A stretch of DNA of 61,076 nucleotides, filler included. It is 7 parts of 7 records of this genome, joined end to end, with 100 filler letters (N's around TTAATTAATTAA, not from the genome) between each part and the next. Parts side by side here need not be neighbours in the genome. Positions count along the whole stretch, not along the records: positions 39,983 to 45,595 come from SRR31156797_26140; 6 more parts are not named here. One strand, 5' to 3'. Positions 39,983-50,500 of the stretch are shown one piece after another. How positions within the stretch are numbered: the first letter of the stretch is position 1; every line of letters begins with the position of its first letter. A program made the translations under genes and the position numbers. Below the pieces are notes generated by a model, which saw only the letters and a list, made by a program, of their open reading frames with translations, had not been told where the DNA came from and searched no databases.

Positions 39983-40008
39983 GGTTAGCGTAGCGTAACC
40001 CAACCTAC
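39983..40008 (-). repeat. GTAG-type REP element, truncated at the contig end
   Basis: Minus strand GTAGGTTGGGTTACGCTACGCTAACC: GTAG head plus palindrome. Confidence 0.55.
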
Positions 40009-40029
40009 AGGACGCATGCCAAATCCTTT

Positions 40030-40692
40030 CTATTGGTTGTTGAAGGCAGCCCCTTGCCGCTTCAGACTTTCAATGCCGGACACGGCCCTTATCAGGGCTT
40101 TGGAATAATGATCCACTTGTCCGGGGCCGTTATAAATCCTGGCAAACGATCGCCAGTCCTTGTTCCTTATTTCATCAAGCAACCGGTTGGCTTTTATGAA
40201 CCCGAAAAAACCGTCTACCTGCTCCAGGCAGCTATCCTGGAAAGCCAGGGCCATTTCACGGGCGTTTCCATGCCTGGTGGTCAGCCAGTTGAAACCCATG
40301 ATCTGAGGCAGCCCCCAGCTGGTGCTTTCAAGGGCGGCTTCAGGATTTAATTTAAAAGCCCGCGTAAGGTTGCGCCATTCAGACTTTTGACCGTTGCGCC
40401 AAACTTTCACGCGCCGGTCGGTCTTGCGTCTGAATACGTGAGGTTCAAAACGGATTATGACCAGGCCGTCCAAACCATAGGCCCGGCCTGATTCCACGGC
40501 GAATACAGCCAGGGCGGATTCAACCGGCAGACAGGCGCCTTCAGCCTGTACCGCGATCCCTTTTCCGTAATCGTTCCATAAGGAAATAATCCTCCTTTCC
40601 ATGGCCGTCCGTCCCCGCATTCCAATCGGAACGTCCGGCTGTGCAGTAGGCTGACGGGCAGCCCTGAATTCCATGTCGCCGACAGTTTTCAT
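40030..40692 (-). CDS. Phage endolysin, N-acetylmuramidase (DUF3380)
   Basis: AVESG, IRFEPHVF, STSWGLPQIMGFN, WRSFARIYNGP. Confidence 0.88.
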   Translation of the reverse strand: MKTVGDMEFRAARQPTAQPDVPIGMRGRTAMERRIISLWNDYGKGIAVQAEGACLPVESALAVFAVESGRAYGLDGLVIIRFEPHVFRRKTDRRVKVWRNGQKSEWRNLTRAFKLNPEAALESTSWGLPQIMGFNWLTTRHGNAREMALAFQDSCLEQVDGFFGFIKANRLLDEIRNKDWRSFARIYNGPGQVDHYSKALIRAVSGIESLKRQGAAFNNQ

Positions 40693-40707
40693 TTTTCCTC
40701 CCACATT

Positions 40708-40971
40708 TTATTGCCGCTGGCTCAACCAGCCCACGGCCACGGAAAGCAAGGCGGTCAGTATAGCCACGCCCCGGTTGAAAAAGGATTGGTCCTTTTTCAT
40801 AACCGCCTGCTCCTGTTTAATAAGGCCTACTTCGCTGACAAGACCGCCCATGCCGTTGCTTCCATGAACGGTTTTTTTCAATTCCGCATTGTCTTCGCAC
40901 GAATTTTTCAAACGCTCCTTGATAGCTGCCAGGTCGGTCAAAACCTGTTCCTGAAATTGTTTTTCAGTCAT
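40708..40971 (-). CDS. Holin-like small protein (coiled coil plus C-terminal TM)
   Basis: 87 aa with a C-terminal hydrophobic helix, immediately upstream of the endolysin. Confidence 0.55.
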   Translation of the reverse strand: MTEKQFQEQVLTDLAAIKERLKNSCEDNAELKKTVHGSNGMGGLVSEVGLIKQEQAVMKKDQSFFNRGVAILTALLSVAVGWLSQRQ

Positions 40972-40996
40972 AAAAACTCTACAGCCCCTCTAAAAC

Positions 40997-42508
40997 TCAT
41001 TTCAGCTTTGTAATTTTCATCTCCGCATAAATCTCACTCCCCAATCCGGCCGCCCGGCCCTGGCCGTTAGCGGCTTGAGTAGTATTGCATCTATGCTGCA
41101 GTTCAATTGTCGATACGGTATTCAACCTGATCATGCCCGATAAAAACGACCTGTTTTGAACATCGGCCCCGCCGGCCAGTTCGGATGTGCCAAGAAGCAG
41201 GGTTTCCGATGCCGAAACATTCCATAATCTTGTTTTATGCCCCGCAACCCTGTATGCCGGCGCAGATGCTTCAATAAAATACCGGGCGCCTGGAAGGATA
41301 ATCCGCCACGAAACGGGATCTAAAATCGCGCCGGGTATCTGGTCCGCCTGGGCGCTGTCAAGCGCACGCCTTTGCCAATCTCCGCTGGTAAAATTACCGC
41401 CGTTAGTCCCGCTGGAACGCAAATCCTGAACATGCATAATTGCACCGGAAAAACAATTATCCCGGCAGGTAAAGATGCTGTTGTCCTTTATGTTGGCGTT
41501 TGCGCCGGTTTTAAATGCTCCAATCAGTCGATGCCTTGTATAATCCGGTATAGCCGCCCTGAAATTGGCCCCGGTATTAGACGTGTCAAAGCAGACATCC
41601 GCATCTGTCCCGTCATCCTTGGCTACAGCCAATACATAGTATTGTGAATCCGAGCCCAGACTTTCTCCCGGCGCCATGCCTCCGGCGTTGTTTCCAATCG
41701 CCCAGGCAGCGTCGGCGCGTTTGCACAGGTTATTAAATGAAATATCAATCTGGTCATCTGCATCGCGGCACGCGCCGGTTATTTTAATATCGTGATCAGA
41801 GTCCGCGCCCGGCTCCAATATTATGGATGTATAGTCTGTCGGGTATTTTGTTTCGTCTATTTCAAGGGTTGCTTTGACAGCGGCCGCCGAATCGTCATCA
41901 AGTATCGATTCCGCAAAGGCCGACACCTTGGCCGCTTCAAACGCCCCCAGCGTTCCCCTGGCCGAGGACGCCGATTCATCATCAAGGACCGTTCTCATGA
42001 AAGCTGATATACCTACGCCGGCAGGCACACTTGCGGAATTGATCAAACCGTCGCCGGCTGCATTCCAGGCCAGATGCTGTCCCGCGGCAGGCGCGGGCAG
42101 TTCCAATTCTTCAAGGCTTGATGACGCCGGGACCTTGGCCGACCTTGCGACCTCCTCATTGAGCATCTGTGCAATCATGGTCAGCTTGTCAAACGCGTCT
42201 TCGACCACGTCGGCCGGGAAATCGTCATTATCCACCAGGTCCATTTCCTGGGTGGCTTCCACGTTTCGTAGAATCGTCACTTTGTGTCCGATTGCCGGCG
42301 CAACGGTTAATGATATCCGCCCTCCACCGGCGTCTCCGGCGCCGCTTACGGTATAATCGGAGCATAAAGCCAGTTCCGTATCCACCGAATCCAGGTCGGT
42401 CAGGATCACTCTAAGGTCGTCGTCCTTAAGGATTTTAAAGGTATAGTCGTACCCGGTCCCGCCGGCGCTTATGTATTGGTTTCTGGCAATGCTGGAAGAG
42501 ATAGTCAT
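40997..42508 (-). CDS. Phage tail fibre protein
   Basis: N-terminal podovirus-type attachment region (YDYTFKIL, DYTVSG, EDAFDKLTMIAQ); AAGGAG RBS. Confidence 0.8.
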   Translation of the reverse strand: MTISSSIARNQYISAGGTGYDYTFKILKDDDLRVILTDLDSVDTELALCSDYTVSGAGDAGGGRISLTVAPAIGHKVTILRNVEATQEMDLVDNDDFPADVVEDAFDKLTMIAQMLNEEVARSAKVPASSSLEELELPAPAAGQHLAWNAAGDGLINSASVPAGVGISAFMRTVLDDESASSARGTLGAFEAAKVSAFAESILDDDSAAAVKATLEIDETKYPTDYTSIILEPGADSDHDIKITGACRDADDQIDISFNNLCKRADAAWAIGNNAGGMAPGESLGSDSQYYVLAVAKDDGTDADVCFDTSNTGANFRAAIPDYTRHRLIGAFKTGANANIKDNSIFTCRDNCFSGAIMHVQDLRSSGTNGGNFTSGDWQRRALDSAQADQIPGAILDPVSWRIILPGARYFIEASAPAYRVAGHKTRLWNVSASETLLLGTSELAGGADVQNRSFLSGMIRLNTVSTIELQHRCNTTQAANGQGRAAGLGSEIYAEMKITKLK

Positions 42509-42712
42509 AAAAAACTCCTTGGGAAAGAGGGAATAGTGGCCTATATCTCAAATAAATGGCCATCTATTTCATCCAAAGACACCGCCTTATATAATTACTA
42601 TTAGCCATTATTCATGACTTTGACTGGAGCAATATTTAAGGCGTTCGCGTTAATCAATAAGAGGCGGCAGAGCCGCCAAGACATTGCGTTCCCAATTACC
42701 CTCCCTTTCCGC

Positions 42713-42742
42713 TTGATTTTATACCCTGTAAGAATTTATTAT
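42713..42742 (+). promoter_or_regulatory. Promoter of ncRNA copy A
   Basis: TTGATT-18-TATTAT. Confidence 0.6.
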
Positions 42743-42749
42743 ATTCATT

Positions 42750-42845
42750 GGGGTTGTGACGCTGGTCGGTTTTCCGGCGAAGGGCGTTCAGCCTCAGGCT
42801 GTCCAATAAATGCTCCGGTCTGCCCGTCGGACGTCGTCACCCCCC
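42750..42845 (+). ncRNA. Structured RNA family copy A (intergenic, just past the stop of the polyvalent gene)
   Basis: Closing stem gggg..gtgacg/cgtcac.cccc; core gggcg-tt-cagcc-tca-ggctg-tcca...tgccc. Confidence 0.75.
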
Positions 42846-42869
42846 TTATTGAATCCGCGCAGCCGGTTA

Positions 42870-45595
42870 TTATTTTTTATTTTCTATCCGCCTTACTTCA
42901 GCGGACAATTCCCGAAGTTCAAGCAATGTCATTTCTGAAAAGGGATTCTTGCAGGCCGGATCATAGCGGCTCAGTAAATTCAATATCCGTTTCTTGCGCC
43001 CCAAAGACACGCCGGTCGATTGCAGAACCTCCATGATAAATCGCTTGCTCCTGGCGAATTCTTCCCTGCCCCTGGAAAGCACCCTTATTTCAATGGCCAG
43101 TCGTCTCTGGTTATTCCGGCGTTGCCCGGCCTCCTCAAGCCTGCCATCCTGGTAGGCCATCCTGGCCGCCATATCTTCGTCCTTCAAACGCCTTTTCATG
43201 TTATCATTGCAAACAGCTAATTCCTCTTCCGTCCAAACTTCGACCCGCTGTTCCATCGACTTTTTCAGTTCATCAGAACTGCGCATTTGGCGGCTGTCAT
43301 CATTAGTCAAGGCCCGGATTTCCATATCAAGCAATTCAATATATTCATCAGTAATGCCCAAAACTTCAAAATCGATCACGGCCAAATATTCCTCTTCAGC
43401 CGTATCCAAATAGTCCTCCACCAATTCCTTTTTAGAAGGTGTTTCCAAAAGCGCGGCCAACAAATCACTACTATTTTTAAAGCCGTATTCGGTCCGGTAT
43501 TCCTCGGCAAGCAAATCCAATGACAGCTTTCCGTTTTTCCACACCAGGCCCACGCGCTTTTTCGTAATTTCACGAATGGTTTCTTCTTCGTAGTAAAATA
43601 AAAGATCCTCTTCGCGCAGCCCCCCGCGCTTCACAATATCATCCATCAGCACATGCACGGGATGCTGTTTGGCCATTTCCCGGCCCTGGGCGCGCCAGCC
43701 GGCCATTCTGGATCCGACTTCGCATTCCCGTTTTTTCTTCACCGCCTCTTCAGCCGCCCTGCCGGCCCTGGCCGCCATTTCCTTGTATTCATCGGTTTGA
43801 AAAAATGCAAAAATCTCCCGGCCTTGTTCATCGATCCGGAAACCACCCTTAATCCGGCCGCCGCGATCTTGATTCAACTGATCGGATTCGTCAGGCTTTT
43901 TTTCTTGTTTTTTTTCATTTTCGGGAGTATTTTTAAATAGAGGTATATACTGGTGAACTCCATTGAGAGATGGGCGTTCAGCTTCCAGCTGTCCACTAAA
44001 GACGCCGAGTCGCCCGCCGGCCGCCAATGAAATACCTCTAATTTTTTCTTCTACACGGCCGCCGCGTTCTTGACTCAACTCCTCGGATTCTTCAGGCTTT
44101 TTATCTTGAATTGATCCCTGTTCAGATGTAATATCAGAGCTTGAGGGTGTGAGGGGACGCCTGCTAAACCGGGATGGGCGTTCAGCTTTGTGCTGTTCAA
44201 AAAATTGGCCGGTCTGCCCGTCGGTCGTCGCCGAATCACCCTCAATTATTTTTGTTATAATTTTTTTTGTCCCTTTAGGCGCATTCTTAGCTAATGTTTG
44301 ATAAGCAAAATTCTTACTTTTTGCTTTCCAAAATCCGTCTACATAGAGTAATTCGGGGTTTTCCTTGGAGGGTGGAGTCCATGATCCAACAAGGGTGTAA
44401 TATTTTGCGCCAATCTTTTTGATAAAGCCGAAACCTTGACTATTTATGTATTTTTTATTCCTTTTAGCTCTATAAAATTCATCTGCTTCATTAACTACTT
44501 CTCTTACAAAGAGCCAATCCTCGAACGTTAAATCTAAATGCTTCTTCATCTCACTGTATATTTCAAAAGCCGGTATGAGTATTATTGGAGATTCGATTTC
44601 AAGACCACTAATTTGTTTCATTTTTTGGACCATCTCAGGTGAGATTCTACGTCGGCGAAAGCATTTACTCTGATCGAACTCTTTACCTTGCGACATTACC
44701 CATTCAGCAAATTCCGCCTCATCTTCATGGTCGGTCGGTTCCATGGCATAAAGCCATCCGCCTTCCGGAACCTCTTCAGCCCAGTCCGACATCTCCAGGT
44801 CGCGGCGGGCTTCGTCCTCCCGCTTTTTCTTCACCGCTTCTTCAGTCGCCCTGCGGGCCCTGGCCGCCATTTCCTTATATTCATCATATCCGTCGTCAAT
44901 TATCGCCTTGTTTTCAAACAATGGCTGATTATTCGCCAGTTCCCGGGCCGCACGGATTTCATCTTCCGTGGACAACATCCGGTCAAACACACGTCGCATT
45001 TCATCGGAAAGTTCCACATCCAAACTATCCAGGGTTTTATAAATACGCAGAAGCCAATCCCGGAAAAGATCAAAGACGCCCTGCAACTCGGGAATAGGCG
45101 CCCGTCCTTCGGCAAGATATTTTTCAAAACCTCTGGCCCATTTTTCATGCTGAGCTCGAGTCCATTTCTGGCCGGGCTTTGCCCCGACCCAGCGGCAAGC
45201 GGTTTCATAATCCCGCCTCACCCAGTCCGGCGAATTTGGATCATTGGCAAGGTCTTCCAGATCCCGCAGGAAAAAATGCCCGATCTCATGCGGGGCAGTT
45301 GAAAAATCCTTGGCCTGGAAAAATGCCAATATCGCCCGGCCCTGTTCATCAATCCTGAAACCGCCCTTAATCCGGCCCCCGCGCTCTTGGTTCAACTCCT
45401 CGGGTTCGTCAGACTTTTTATCTTGATTTGATCCCTTTTCGGGTGTAATATCTTTATCGGGGAGAAGTGGTGTCCCGGACTCGTTACCGGGAATCGGCCG
45501 TTCATTCATTTTCGAATGTTCAAAAAATCGGGCGGGTTGGCTGTCGTCGGACTGTTTCTCCCCATTGTTTTTTTGTTCAATAAATTCTTTTCTTT
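42870..45595 (-). CDS. Large polyvalent phage protein, 5' truncated (zincin-like HExxH region, putative PBECR-like RNase domain, repeated linkers)
   Basis: Frame stays open from the contig edge (RKEFIEQK...) into the 879-aa ORF; FSTAPHEIGH, HEKWARGFEKYLAEGRAP; position next to the tail fibre. Confidence 0.7.
43905..43933 (+). promoter_or_regulatory. Promoter of ncRNA copy C (intragenic, antisense)
   Basis: TTGTTT-17-TATTTT at the position homologous to the other copies. Confidence 0.5.
43938..44040 (+). ncRNA. Structured RNA family copy C (antisense, inside the CDS)
   Basis: Perfect closing stem tagaggtat/atacctcta then a T-run; core gggcg-tt-cagct-tcc-agctg-tcca...cgccc. Confidence 0.78.
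44106..44134 (+). promoter_or_regulatory. Promoter of ncRNA copy B (intragenic, antisense)
   Basis: TTGAAT-17-TAATAT. Confidence 0.65.
44141..44245 (+). ncRNA. Structured RNA family copy B (antisense, inside the CDS)
   Basis: Perfect closing stem ttgagggtg/caccctcaa then a T-rich tail; core gggcg-tt-cagc-tttgt-gctg-ttca...tgccc. Confidence 0.8.
45423..45451 (+). promoter_or_regulatory. Promoter of ncRNA copy D (intragenic, antisense)
   Basis: TTGATT-17-TAATAT. Confidence 0.65.
45459..45563 (+). ncRNA. Structured RNA family copy D (antisense, inside the CDS)
   Basis: Closing stem ggggagaa/ttctcccc then a T-run; covaried core ggccg-tt-cattc-attttc-gaatg-ttca...tggct. Confidence 0.75.
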
Positions 45596-45695
45596 NNNNN
45601 NNNNNNNNNNNNNNNNNNNNNNNNNNNNNNNNNNNNNNNTTAATTAATTAANNNNNNNNNNNNNNNNNNNNNNNNNNNNNNNNNNNNNNNNNNNN
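45596..45695. other. Artificial contig linker
   Basis: N44-TTAATTAATTAA-N44. Confidence 0.98.
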
Positions 45696-46174
45696 ATAAT
45701 AAGGATGCCGAAAAAAATGCATCTATCATATTAAACAAATGGAGAGCATTAAATCTACCTGTTTTTCATGTCATTCATAGTTCAAAAGATCCAAATTCAA
45801 GGTTTCGCGAATCTCTGTCAGGATTCGAAATAAAAGATGAAGTTAAACCAATAACCGGAGAACCTGTGATTACAAAAAATGTCCATAGCGCTTTTATGGG
45901 TACGGATTTAAAAGACAGGTTGGATAAACAAGGAATCAATAGTGTAGTAATTACTGGATTAACCACTAACCATTGTGTTTCAACATCGACAAGAATGGCT
46001 GGGGACTTCGGATTTGATACTTTTTTAATATCAGATGCCACTGCTACATTTGACAGAATTGGAATTAATGGTGAAAAATTCTCATCCGAAATTATTCATC
46101 AAACGGCTTTAGCTAATCTGAACAATGATTTTGCACAAGTAATTGATACAAAAAAACTACTTGAATTGGTGTAA
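45696..46174 (+). CDS. Isochorismatase-family cysteine hydrolase, 5' truncated
   Basis: KNVHSAF.GT, GLTTNHCVSTSTR, SDATAT. Confidence 0.88.
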
Positions 46175-46200
46175 CAACTGTTTACAATGTGCTGGAAAGA

Positions 46201-47586
46201 TTATTGCCATCCGCCACCCAAGGCTTTATACAGTTGAACAATCGAAACAAGCTCATCGCGTTTCGCCTGGTTAAGGCTCAGTTCTGCATTTAAAAGACTT
46301 CGCTGTGCGTCGAGCAAGTCGAGATAGCCAATTACTCCGTTTAGATACTGGACTACTCCCAAACGTTGGTATTCGCGTGCTGCGCGTACCAGCTTACGCT
46401 GCGCCGAGGTAATTTCTTTGGTTTTTTCAACAGCAAAAATTGCACTGTTCACCTCGTGAAAAGCTTTTAAAACCGTATTCTGATAGGCATAAATCTGCTC
46501 TTCGTAAAAGGCTTCAGCAATGCGTTGTTCATTTTTAAGTTTACCCGCCTGAATCAATGGTGCAATAACATCGCCCGCCACAAACCAAAATGGCGATTTT
46601 AACAGGTCTTTTAAATCGTCATTTTTCCCACCAAACTCTGCAGTTAAAGCAATACGCGGGTAACGGTTGGTAACGGCTACTCCAACATCAGCATTGGAAG
46701 CAATCAGGTTTTGTTCGGCCTGCATAATGTCGGGGCGCTTCAATAACAAATCAGAAGGAAGGCCAACCGGAATCTCTTCGGGCATTTTCTGGTCAGACAA
46801 AATACTTCCCCGTTTAAACGAATGATCGTAGGAACCAATAAGCGTTGCCAACTGGTTCTCAATTATTCTTATTTCCCTTTCAACCGATGGAGCAAGTGTT
46901 CTGGTATTTTCCAGTTCAACCAAAGCTTGTTGCACCGATGTTTCGGATGTAAGTCCCCCTTCAAATCGCAGGTTGGCAATTCGCGATCCTTCCTCACGCG
47001 ATTTTATCGTTTTGTATATTATTTGTAGTTCATCATCCAGCGCTATCAAATTAAAGTAAGCTTCGGCAACTTCGGCCACAATACTTAGCTGCACAGCCCG
47101 TTGTGCTTCTACCGATGCCAGATAATCGGCTATTGCCGCCTCTTTTCCCCAACGAATATTTCCCCATAAATCAAGCTCCCATTCCAAAGTCGCCAAAAGA
47201 TTATATTCATAACTTTCCTCCTTTGCATCTCCTCCAAAATTTTCCATTTCTTTTTCAGCATGAAAGTCACCGATAACCTGAGGATACAGACCGGCAGAAG
47301 CTATTTGTTTTGAAGCCCAAAACTGCTTTAGCCTTGTTGTGGCAATTTTCAGATCGTTATTGTTATTAAATGCTGTTTCAATAAGATCCTGCAATACTGT
47401 ATCTCCGTATAGTTCCCACCACGCCATATCGCCAAGCGACATTGAATCGATCTTTGCCGTATCGAGGCTGACAGGCAACTGTAATTCGGGTCGGGTATAA
47501 ACAGAACCCACCTTACAGGAAAATGTGCTTAACAAAATCCAAAAAGCAAGAAACTGAATAATATGTATTAAGCGAATATTCTTCAT
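46201..47586 (-). CDS. RND outer membrane factor lipoprotein (NodT/OprM-like)
   Basis: Lipobox FSC, WELDLWG, RPDIMQAE, LYKALGGGW. Confidence 0.93.
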   Translation of the reverse strand: MKNIRLIHIIQFLAFWILLSTFSCKVGSVYTRPELQLPVSLDTAKIDSMSLGDMAWWELYGDTVLQDLIETAFNNNNDLKIATTRLKQFWASKQIASAGLYPQVIGDFHAEKEMENFGGDAKEESYEYNLLATLEWELDLWGNIRWGKEAAIADYLASVEAQRAVQLSIVAEVAEAYFNLIALDDELQIIYKTIKSREEGSRIANLRFEGGLTSETSVQQALVELENTRTLAPSVEREIRIIENQLATLIGSYDHSFKRGSILSDQKMPEEIPVGLPSDLLLKRPDIMQAEQNLIASNADVGVAVTNRYPRIALTAEFGGKNDDLKDLLKSPFWFVAGDVIAPLIQAGKLKNEQRIAEAFYEEQIYAYQNTVLKAFHEVNSAIFAVEKTKEITSAQRKLVRAAREYQRLGVVQYLNGVIGYLDLLDAQRSLLNAELSLNQAKRDELVSIVQLYKALGGGWQ

Positions 47587-50500
47587 TATTTTTCCTCTGA
47601 AAGTTCAACTTTAGTGTTCTTTTGTTTTTGTGGTTTTAGCTTGTAAATCATCACAAAAAAGAACGGTACCAAAACAATACCAACAGTTAAGGCAATCAAC
47701 ATTCCGAAAAACACGCCAGTACCAATCGAGTGTCGTCCTGCCGAGCCGGGACCAGTAGCCAGTACCAATGGTAACATCCCCAGAACAAAAGCCAACGAAG
47801 TCATTACAATTGGTCGAAAACGCAAACGCCCGGCTTTTATGGCAGCTTCAACCAGGTCGCATCCATTATCTACTTCAACTTTGGCAAATTCCACTATTAA
47901 TATGGCATTTTTAGCCGCTAAACCAATTAAGGTTACCAAACCAATCTGGAAATAAATATTGTTATCCAGTCCGGTTATCCAAATGCCTAAGAAGGCACCA
48001 AAAGCAGCCACCGGTAGCGATAATAAAACAGCCGCCGGAACCAACCAGCTTTCATATTGGGCGGCCAGAAAAAGAAACACAAAAAGAAAAACCAGGGCCA
48101 TGATATACCCCGTTTGTCCTCCGGCCTTTTTCTCTTGGTAGGACAAGCCACTCCAATCGTAACCAATGTTATCGGGTAACCGGGTTCTAATTATTTCTTC
48201 CATAGCAGCCATTGCATCTCCCGAACTATAGCCGCCAGCCGGGGTACCCCGAATTACTGCCGATGAAAACATATTAAATCGTTTAATACTTCCGGGGCCG
48301 GTTGTATACGATGTTTCTCCCAGTGCGGTTAGTGGCACCATGGTATCGTCGGCACCACGAACAAAAAACAGTCCCAGCATATTCTGGTTGGCACGGAAAG
48401 GTTCTTCTGCCTGAATATATACTTTGTAAATACGGTTAAACATGTTAAAGTCGTTAACATAAACCGATCCTAAAAAAGCTTTCATACTGGAAAAAACATC
48501 GGCCAATGGAATCCCCAAAAGCTTTACACGATCGCGGTTAACATCGAAATACAATTGTGGAATATCGGCTTGCAAACTCGATGAAACACCTTCTAAAGCT
48601 TCGTGTCCGGCAGCATACAACAGCAAACTATCGGTTGCTGCCACAAGGTCTTCCCAGGTGGCTCCCGATTTGGCCTGAAGCTGCAATTCAAATCCCCCCG
48701 AGGTTCCAAGGCCTGGAATTACCGGTGGTTTATTAAAGAAAAAATTGGCCTCAGGTATCTCATGAAATGCCCTGCCGGCCTCATCAATAACAGCCTGTAC
48801 ATTCATTCCTTTATCCCGTTCTCCCCAGGGTTTTAAAGTAACCGTAAGCTCTGCCCTTCCCTGGTTTACACCTGTTCTCGGGCCTGTACCGGCAATATGC
48901 TGCACGTAGTCGACTGCCGGGTGCGCTTTAAAATATTCCACCACCTTATCGGTAATTATACGCGTACGTTCGAGTGTAGCCCCATCGTTTAATTCAATCT
49001 CCAATACAAAATATCCCTGGTCTTCTTCGGGAATAAAAGAGGTTGGAATCACCTTCGATAAAACAAAAATGAAAACGAGCACCATGCCAAAACCGGCAAT
49101 TATCCGTTTTGGTTTTTTAATGGCCCCTCTTAATAAGCTTATGTATTTGTTATTTCCGGCTTGCAGCCAGGCATTAATCTTTCGGAATACTACATTTGTT
49201 CCATTAGCCGGCTTTAAAATAATAGCACACATTGCCGGACTTAAGGTTAAAGCAACAAGGGTTGATATTAACACAGAAACCACAATGGTTACAGAAAATT
49301 GCCGGTACAGTTCTCCGGTTATTCCTGATAAAAAACTAACCGGCACAAACACTGCTGCAAGTACCATGGAAGTTGCAATAAGTGCCCCCGATAAATTTTT
49401 CATAGCTTTATGTGTGGCTTCACGTGCACTCAGTTTCTCGGTTCTCATGAGGTATTCCACGCTTTCCACCACCACAATGGCATCGTCAACCACAATACCA
49501 ATAGACAAAATTAAACCCAGTAGTGTTAACATATTTAATGAAAAGCCCATTGCAAGCATAAATCCAAAAGTTCCGATCAGGGAAATAGGGACGGCAATTA
49601 GTGGGATAATGGTTGAACGCCAGTTTTGAAGCGATAAAAACACCACCAACACCACAAGCAACAAAGCCTGAAAAAGGGTGGAATAAACCTCCTTTATTGA
49701 GGCTTTAATATATGCAGTCATGTCGAAAGGAATCTGATAATCGAGACCTTCAGGAAAATTCTGACTTAATTCTGCCATGGTTGCTTTTATATTATCGGCT
49801 ACTTCAACGGCATTTGCTCCAGGCAACATATAAATGGCCAACATTGCTGCATTCCCTCCGTTTATTCCACTTTCCTGTGTATACGATGATGCTTCAAGCG
49901 AAACCCGTGCAACATCTTTCATTCGAATGATGGTACCATCGTTGGAGGCCCTAACCACAATTTGTTCAAATTCAGCAGCGGTCTCCAACCTTCCTTTTGT
50001 TGAAATAGGCAGGGTAATGTCAAGGTCATTCATGGGTTGCAAGCCCAGCTCACCCGCCGCCGATTCCCGGTTTTGATCTTTAAGGGCATCCTGCAAATCT
50101 TTTACTGTCAGGCCAAAACTTGCCAACCTGTCGGGCATCACCCAAATACGCATACCGTAGTAACGACTACCACGGTTCGATACCCGACCTACCCCGGGAA
50201 TTCTTCGAAGTACATCCAATACATTAATAGTTGCAAAATTACTCAGGTAAATCTCATCATATTTCCCATCTTCGGCCACCAAACAAATGGTAAGCAATTG
50301 ACTTGCCGATTGTTTTTCAACAGATAATCCATTCTGAACAACTTCGGCCGGTAGTCGCGATTCGGCCAGTTTAACCCTGTTTTGAATTTCAACTGCTGCC
50401 AAATCAGGATCAACACCAACATCAAAGGTTACGTTTATACTTATTCCCCCCGAGTTTGAACTACTCGACTCCATATAAATCATCCCTGGGGTTCCGTTTA

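Follow-up and report, generated by a model that had tools for sequence, protein, structure and literature searches.

Structured repeats with promoter-like hexamer pairs opposite the linkers of a phage polyvalent protein gene as candidate antisense small-RNA cassettes

Polyvalent proteins, reportedly set out by Iyer and co-workers in 2017 for phages and conjugative elements, are giant proteins built of swappable modules with low-complexity linkers. Cis-encoded antisense small RNAs of the OOP, Sok, and CopA type are structured molecules of ∼60–110 nt that lie opposite the gene they overlap; each is transcribed from a sigma70-type promoter of its own and ends in a stem plus U-run. The Rickettsia palindromic elements (RPEs), which Ogata and co-workers are said to have described in 2000, are palindromic repeats of ∼100 nt found in frame in genes and also in noncoding DNA. 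The peptide encoded by an RPE is apparently tolerated, not selected, and to our knowledge RPEs are dispersed over many unrelated genes and carry neither promoter nor terminator signals. Lambda OOP RNA, made from pO, lies opposite the end of the cII gene (PMC5869508). In T4-type phages, repeated cassettes called PeSLs (promoter-early stem-loops) combine a sigma70-like promoter with a stem-loop and an AT-rich tract; they are described as joints for modular shuffling that are intergenic, run in the same direction as the small early genes beside them, and include Shine-Dalgarno sequences as well as stop and start signals (PMC2839356). Here, we describe four structured repeats, E1–E4, on the plus strand of a 5613-nt phage contig (SRR31156797_26140; positions 39983–45595), associated with the 3′ part of a large open reading frame (ORF) on the minus strand (42870..45595; 908 codons seen, truncated by the contig end) that encodes a polyvalent protein. 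All positions are those of the window, the whole stretch of 61,076 nt analyzed, which strings together seven unrelated contigs with N-TTAATTAATTAA-N spacers between them; their GC content ranges from 34% to 62%, and adjoining contigs may stem from different organisms.

We consider it roughly an even bet (probability about 0.5) that the repeat units are antisense small-RNA cassettes with host-type promoters of their own, overprinted on the linkers of the protein. Every spacer between polyvalent modules would then double as a small RNA gene on the plus strand, each unit comprising a T-rich tract, a sigma70-type −35/−10 pair, a start 4–7 nt farther on at the foot of the closing stem, a multihelix RNA of ∼100 nt, and a T-run. 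Host RNA polymerase would initiate at the promoter-like sites and terminate at the T-runs; E2–E4 are kept open and in frame, read through by the protein as flexible linker, and E1 sits just past the stop codon. The likeliest role would be a regulatory one. It could be exerted by pairing with the polyvalent mRNA, which is conceivable because E2–E4 are perfectly complementary to that mRNA, or by the shared core acting in trans, which would account for the retention of the core in the nonoverlapping E1. The conserved core, together with the nonoverlapping copy, suggests such a shared function in trans.

The four repeats share one architecture, fold with compensatory changes, carry a strand bias, and are inherited as modules. 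E1 (42750..42845, plus strand) is a structured element of ∼96 nt outside the ORF, with a weak T stretch directly after it and a long T-run at 42862–42878. E2 (43938..44040; ∼103 nt), E3 (44141..44245; ∼105 nt), and E4 (45459..45563; ∼105 nt, the most diverged copy), likewise structured and on the plus strand, are in frame and are followed by TTTTTT, a T-rich run, and TTTTTTT, respectively. Their common core, with the conserved motifs CGTTCA, a hairpin, TGTYCAMWAAA, and GCCCGYCG, occurs four times in the window against 0.00 expected, and no further copy was found in the other 55 kb. Fold z-scores on the plus strand lie between −1.7 and −3.0 (−2.99 for E2). The closing stem has a different sequence in each copy (GGGGTTGTGACG, TAGAGGTAT, TTGAGGGTG, GGGGAGAAGTGGT) and its far end pairs in all four; its duplex energy was equaled by 14, 14, 107, and 8 of 1000 shuffles. 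Compensatory changes also occur inside the fold, where E4 has CATTC/GAATG for CAGC/GCTG in the inner hairpin and GGCC/GGCU for GGGC/GCCC in helix P3. When the cores are aligned, 88.6% of cells are paired versus 18%–59% with slid partners, and two pairs are changed on both sides. The repeats are a structured nucleic acid, not a protein family.

Helices defined by hand contain 101 Watson-Crick pairs, 11 G·U, 1 A·C, and 2 others, a G·U to A·C ratio of 11:1 (binomial p 0.006). This excess points to the plus strand as the one that folds, since a fold of the minus strand would turn each G·U into an A·C mismatch. Nine of the 12 nucleotides that follow the closing stem on the plus strand are T after E2, E3, and E4, and 12-mers with nine T form 11 clusters on the plus strand of the contig. 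The closing stem ahead of the T-run closes a multibranch fold, and a terminator scan lists no plus-strand terminator at E1–E4. Because T-rich runs trail the closing stems, the plus-strand order in every copy is T-tract, −35, −10, stem-closed RNA, and T-run. Searches against described RNA families returned little: Rfam 15 cmscan of 40000–48000, at E up to 1, gave no match at E1–E4 and two weak matches to snoRNA models elsewhere, and ARAGORN found neither tRNA nor tmRNA. A tRNA-like (T-loop) reading of the GTTCA motif was rejected on this ARAGORN result and on the absence of the flanking stem. Repeats of a diversity-generating retroelement were rejected on reading, the copies varying at all bases and not at adenines alone.

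A promoter-like hexamer pair on the plus strand precedes each repeat, and these pairs exceed chance. The pair before E1, TTGATT-18-TATTAT (42713..42742), is noncoding, past the stop of the polyvalent gene, and matches 9 of 12 consensus bases; those before E2 (TTGTTT-17-TATTTT, 43905..43933, the weakest), E3 (TTGAAT-17-TAATAT, 44106..44134), and E4 (TTGATT-17-TAATAT, 45423..45451) encode NTPENEKKQEKK, DITSEQGSIQDKK, and DITPEKGSNQDKK, respectively, on the minus strand. The first-pass annotation had proposed four such pairs 4–7 nt before the RNAs, with the intragenic ones read in the protein frame as linkers, and both statements hold: All four pairs are present, with 7, 4, 6, and 7 nt from the end of the −10 box to the first base of the closing stem for E1–E4, and the minus-strand frame gives the linker peptides just named. 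When both strands of the contig were scored with an approximate sigma70 matrix (11,164 positions), the sites of E3, E4, and E1 ranked 1, 2, and 3 and that of E2 ranked 25. After shuffling of the 50-nt upstream stretches, a site 4–9 nt before the stem matched or beat the real one in 18, 271, 14, and 19 of 5000 cases for E1–E4. The −35 boxes match TTGACA at 4, 3, 4, and 4 of 6 bases with an invariant TTG, all four −10 boxes fit TAnnnT at 17 ± 1 bp, and the TGn extension is absent. The loose pattern TTGnnn-N16–19-TAnnnT occurs eight times on the plus strand of the contig, four of these being the E1–E4 sites, and once on its minus strand; minus-strand promoters at the units were rejected on this single match to the entire strand. 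Beside the E1 unit there are two additional promoter-like sites on the plus strand, TTCATC-16-TATAAT at 42568–42597 (rank 4) and TTGAAT-16-TATTTT at 42849–42876 (rank 6).

The copy outside the coding region is especially informative. E1 overlaps only the 3′ flank of the polyvalent gene: it lies past the stop codon and ahead of a terminator hairpin of the gene strand, and its linker frame is full of stops. When the E1 region is aligned locally with those of E3 and E4, both alignments start at the CTTG of the −35 box (42712|44105 and 42712|45422) and extend to the end of the closing stem. Because the homology has these bounds, the unit kept outside a coding context is exactly promoter plus RNA, and we regard this as the best single argument in favor of reading the units as putative promoter-RNA cassettes. 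In the −1 frame, E1 still reads TSDGQTGAFIGQPEAERPS, and this frame closes in the E1 linker. The polyvalent ORF itself ends AAT AAA AAA TAA TAA, and from the A-run the −1 frame continues for ∼41 codons through E1 (42745–42885; ..TSDGQTGAFIGQPEAERPS..), which may be what remains of a once longer protein or, alternatively, an extension reached by slippage.

The three other copies lie wholly inside the minus-strand ORF, whose frame is open through all of them, and the layers of this shared sequence differ in how their codons vary. Each is preceded by a linker repeat of 80 nt (D1 at 44056..44135; other copies at 43855–43934 and 45373–45452), with a coding-like distal half and a proximal half that contains the hexamers; the linkers of E2–E4 are 76%–86% identical over the 80 nt and are paralogues. 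At codon positions 1, 2, and 3, the distal half differs at 6/42, 2/42, and 11/39 sites and adjacent domain pieces at 3/22, 1/22, and 8/22, both with an excess at the third position. The proximal half gives 8/39, 8/39, and 12/39. Differences among the four paralogous E cores fall at 44/120, 44/120, and 35/114, with no third-position excess, and for this reason the E peptide looks like a passenger; the peptides encoded by the four copies are strongly different.

These counts bear directly on a reading in which the units are a feature of the protein only, namely a flexible linker rich in K, E, D, and Q followed by the last beta-hairpin of an LPD3-like domain, with RNA fold and promoters as coincidences of composition. 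We consider this highly improbable. The open frame through three units and the coding-type substitutions in the distal linker are what it predicts, and the E4 peptide and linker (45459–45596) align, within one BLAST alignment, with residues 871–930 of P0123, the one distant protein returned by a search with P0122 at longer lengths. This segment of P0123 is the LPD3 tail plus the linker ahead of its zincin module (ARFFEHS in E4 versus KRYYDHS in P0123), and because of the alignment an LPD3-like domain may lie just past the contig end, where the domain ahead of E4 is truncated. A protein-only account, however, sits poorly with E cores that lack a third-position excess, with four dissimilar peptides, with closing stems that co-vary, and with an E1 that is not translated in the frame of the gene. 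Nor is the domain before E3 an LPD3, by Pfam or by profile comparison: hhalign of the domain before E3 plus E3 (residues 285–480) against eight LPD3 (PF18798) segments gave a probability of 0.07%. For that domain, Pfam assigned no family, and tblastn found nothing in phage records. Searches with LPD3 segments likewise matched nothing in phage records, a two-sequence LPD3 alignment led to no confirmed locus, and PF18798 does not occur in phages AF and BPP-1.

Run X2, from a separate study, contains a 92%–97% relative, which was compared at the level of contigs. X2 is without one linker-plus-E unit (a 201-nt skip), holds a re-ordered unit, and has 262 other letters in place of 466 nt of a neighboring domain; its novel sequence begins 2 nt past the E3 stem and 7 nt past the E2 stem. 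At E4, the match ends with the final base of the −10 box (45451) and is followed by 35 different letters and then by the shared core. By this comparison, the units are discrete modules in mosaic evolution. The distal linker, promoter, and E3 (44056–44247) differ from X2 at 6 of 192 nt, at least four of the six being explained by residue changes in the distal linker, and 49 of 50 residues from IEG to DKK are identical; the flanking domains differ at 83/989 nt (8.4%) and 44/938 nt (4.7%), and the E2-like unit is more diverged (21/134 and 8/78 nt). With one genome pair, selection and recent exchange would leave inseparable patterns.

The same joints are what would be expected if the units were PeSL-like recombination joints, that is, repeated promoter-plus-stem-loop cassettes that serve domain gain, loss, and swapping at the DNA level, with transcription secondary. 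This explanation overlaps in part with the small-RNA reading, and we judge it unlikely. The X2 events start or stop at unit edges (the 201-nt unit deletion, the re-ordered unit, the replacement of 466 nt by 262, and the swapped E4 body), the zincin module is duplicated and gutted between the repeats D2 and D5, and in P0123 the zincin module leads straight into the C-terminal domain with no units between them. PeSLs, moreover, are described as sigma70 promoters and stem-loops that mediate shuffling (PMC2839356). Any repeat recombines, however, and recombination leaves unexplained the conserved multihelix fold with its compensatory changes, the G·U bias, and the fixed order of promoter, stem, and T-run; further, PeSLs are intergenic and gene-sense, whereas the present units are intragenic and antisense.

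The distribution of the repeats is narrow. A blastn search of 42700–45595 against 50,697 phage records gave no match. Three element patterns were used on IMG/VR: the first returned 39 chance matches in GC-rich contigs, and the two others returned 0 and 0. The pattern search of JGI metagenomes gave three chance loci, all of one unrelated sequence, and that of GTDB genomes gave none. Searches of IMG/VR for related loci with P0001, a P0001/P0122 alignment, and the tail fiber confirmed none, and no homologous protein of near length was found. The E family thus appears, on these searches, to be lineage-restricted. The first-pass annotation had suggested that the peptide pattern of the linkers could be a searchable footprint of such cassettes in other polyvalent proteins, and this generalization fails. 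A phmmer search with 156 residues (E3, linker, E2, linker) returned one match among 1.84 billion representatives, a near-identical relative encoded on the 14,937-nt contig of run X2; in each of the 59 homologues examined (of 120 listed), [AN]ERP occurs at most once and GGR[IVL] at most twice; and the counterpart genes show a single AT-rich island in phage AF and none in BPP-1, with no comparable units in either. A location of such motifs just downstream of nuclease domains found no confirmation either, the domain before E3 matching no family.

A lineage-restricted family of palindromic repeats could also be selfish: E would have spread in frame into tolerant linkers, as RPEs do, without acting as an RNA, and the promoter-like hexamers would simply reflect the AT content of the flanking sequence. 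In its favor are the copies in frame within the ORF plus one noncoding copy, the palindromic ends, the unconstrained peptide, and the restricted distribution. We nonetheless think it distinctly unlikely. All four copies are in one gene and its 3′ flank, with none in the other 55 kb or, at the pattern used, in three public collections, and the hexamers outscore composition-matched shuffles. The E1 homology, too, begins at the −35 box rather than at the palindrome. Terminal inverted repeats and target duplications of the kind associated with miniature inverted-repeat transposable elements were not seen with unit ends read by eye only.

Several points weigh against small-RNA cassettes. The cassettes are predicted from sequence, and the elements are known from two genomes only. 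The hexamers match 7–9 of the 12 bases of a sigma70 consensus that is presumed for the host, and the matrix used to rank them was built from approximate, not tool-derived, base frequencies. A stricter consensus scan passes the E1 site only, and it finds three promoter-like sites in the contig versus 6.1 ± 2.6 in shuffles. Retention of the hexamers in E2–E4 does not amount to independent events, because the linkers are paralogous and the hexamers mostly inherited with them. As to the strand, the helices for the G·U count were picked by eye on the plus strand, and the mean fold z-score is about −2.2 on either strand, which does not separate them; for both reasons the evidence for the plus strand as the folded one is suggestive only. 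There are only five T in the 12 nt directly after the E1 stem, and in X2 the T-run after E3 is cut to about four T. The earlier proposal that each cassette is an autonomous transcription unit overprinted on an ORF is borne out in part, convincingly so in its architecture: the spaced and top-ranked pairs, E1 homology from the −35 CTTG, the 11:1 G·U ratio, the T-runs, and the lack of third-position excess are consistent with it, and the part that failed is the linker footprint.

Every gene of the contig is on the minus strand: an endolysin gene (40030–40704), a small ORF, the tail fiber gene (40997–42508), and the 3′ part of the polyvalent gene. Residues 64–258 of the large ORF, which bear a HEIGH motif, match phrog_9880 (5e-57), and this zincin-like module matches 135 proteins at E ≤0.001. 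The 120 listed homologues of the module are 28%–63% identical and 1,600–4,400 residues long, and LPD22, ART-PolyVal, PBECR, and LPD3 domains occur in most of them. In two cultured phages, Pseudomonas phage AF (AF_016) and Bordetella phage BPP-1 (bbp10), the homologue is a giant protein encoded between structural lysozyme and tail fiber genes, a gene order with which the contig agrees. The large ORF thus encodes the polyvalent (multidomain), probably virion-internal or ejected, protein of a podovirus of ∼42 kb. Relatives of the phage infect Pseudomonadota, and its host is presumed from these relatives.

Three features of this region are recorded here as observations in their own right. The terminator-like hairpin of the gene strand (42663..42677, minus) lies between E1 and the tail fiber gene, within a stretch of ∼36 nt (42657–42693; GGCGGC..GCCGCC) that recurs in runs X1 and X2 on many other contigs, whose depth of about 44–58 equals that of the phage contig, and that in these copies usually precedes a second hairpin. 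No second copy was found elsewhere in the window; the stretch may belong to the host as a repeat or serve this same genome as a recurrent intergenic signal. At 43718–43929, where the C-terminal domain starts, comparison with 44810–44885 and 45307–45447 shows a gutted second copy of the zincin module, in which the first strands (GGRIKGGFRIDEQGR..FFQ) run straight into the tail (DEYKEMAARA..KKKRE) without the HEIGH core. Finally, the module before E3 (44250–44800, ∼180 residues) is AT-richer than its neighbors by eye, and in X2 its last ∼88 codons give way to 262 other letters.

If the units are transcribed, the locus would be a case of dense overprinting, with a structured RNA gene and its own signals opposite the ORF wherever two modules of an injected effector protein meet. 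The toolkit of phage polyvalent proteins would thereby gain a layer of RNA; the locus would also provide a mechanism that ties module shuffling to the exchange of regulatory RNAs, and would represent a kind of gene that annotation pipelines miss entirely. More tentatively, and with more doubt than confidence, we raise the possibility of a hidden gene layer, in which backward, in-frame promoter-RNA-terminator cassettes (“RNA morons”) occupy the domain joints of the injected polyvalent proteins of some phages. The same DNA would then serve as linker, swappable small-RNA gene, and recombination joint, and its RNAs, which the host polymerase would produce separately from the late operon (e.g., in early infection or from a prophage), would regulate or neutralize neighboring modules or act on the host via the core. 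If the units are not transcribed, they would be of narrower interest, though a structured repeat carried in frame by a phage gene is still unusual. Cis-antisense RNA genes and regulatory cassettes are known, and it is the overprinted, in-frame, multicopy form that is unusual; in the parts of the literature that our search reached, no description of RNA genes in polyvalent-protein linkers was found.

Set against the described systems, the locus resembles each in some respects and departs from each in others. It shares with other polyvalent proteins a zincin-like HExxH module, homologous to the 120 listed proteins, and it differs from them in its spacer units, which are absent by motif from 59 of the 120 listed homologues and by DNA from the AF and BPP-1 genes. 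The likeness to cis-antisense small RNAs is in the short structured element of ∼100 nt (96–105 nt for E1–E4, within the 60–110 nt of that class), the promoter-like pair of sigma70 type, the stem with a T-run directly behind it in three of the four copies, and the position opposite a coding gene, with E2–E4 overlapping the opposite-strand mRNA. Unlike OOP and its kind, however, the units occur as four paralogous copies with a common core, three of them lie wholly inside an open frame at domain joints, E1 is without coding overlap, and all are predicted from sequence. With PeSLs, the units have in common that they are repeated cassettes of AT-rich tract, promoter-like pair, and stem, with X2 joints at their edges; they differ in being intragenic (three of four), in frame, and antisense, with a multihelix fold of ∼100 nt in place of a simple hairpin. 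The likeness to RPEs is that of a palindromic repeat of ∼100 nt present in frame and in a noncoding copy, with a peptide that is seemingly tolerated. In contrast to RPEs, the four copies cluster at a single gene, its 3′ flank included, and every copy comes with its promoter-like pair and T-run.

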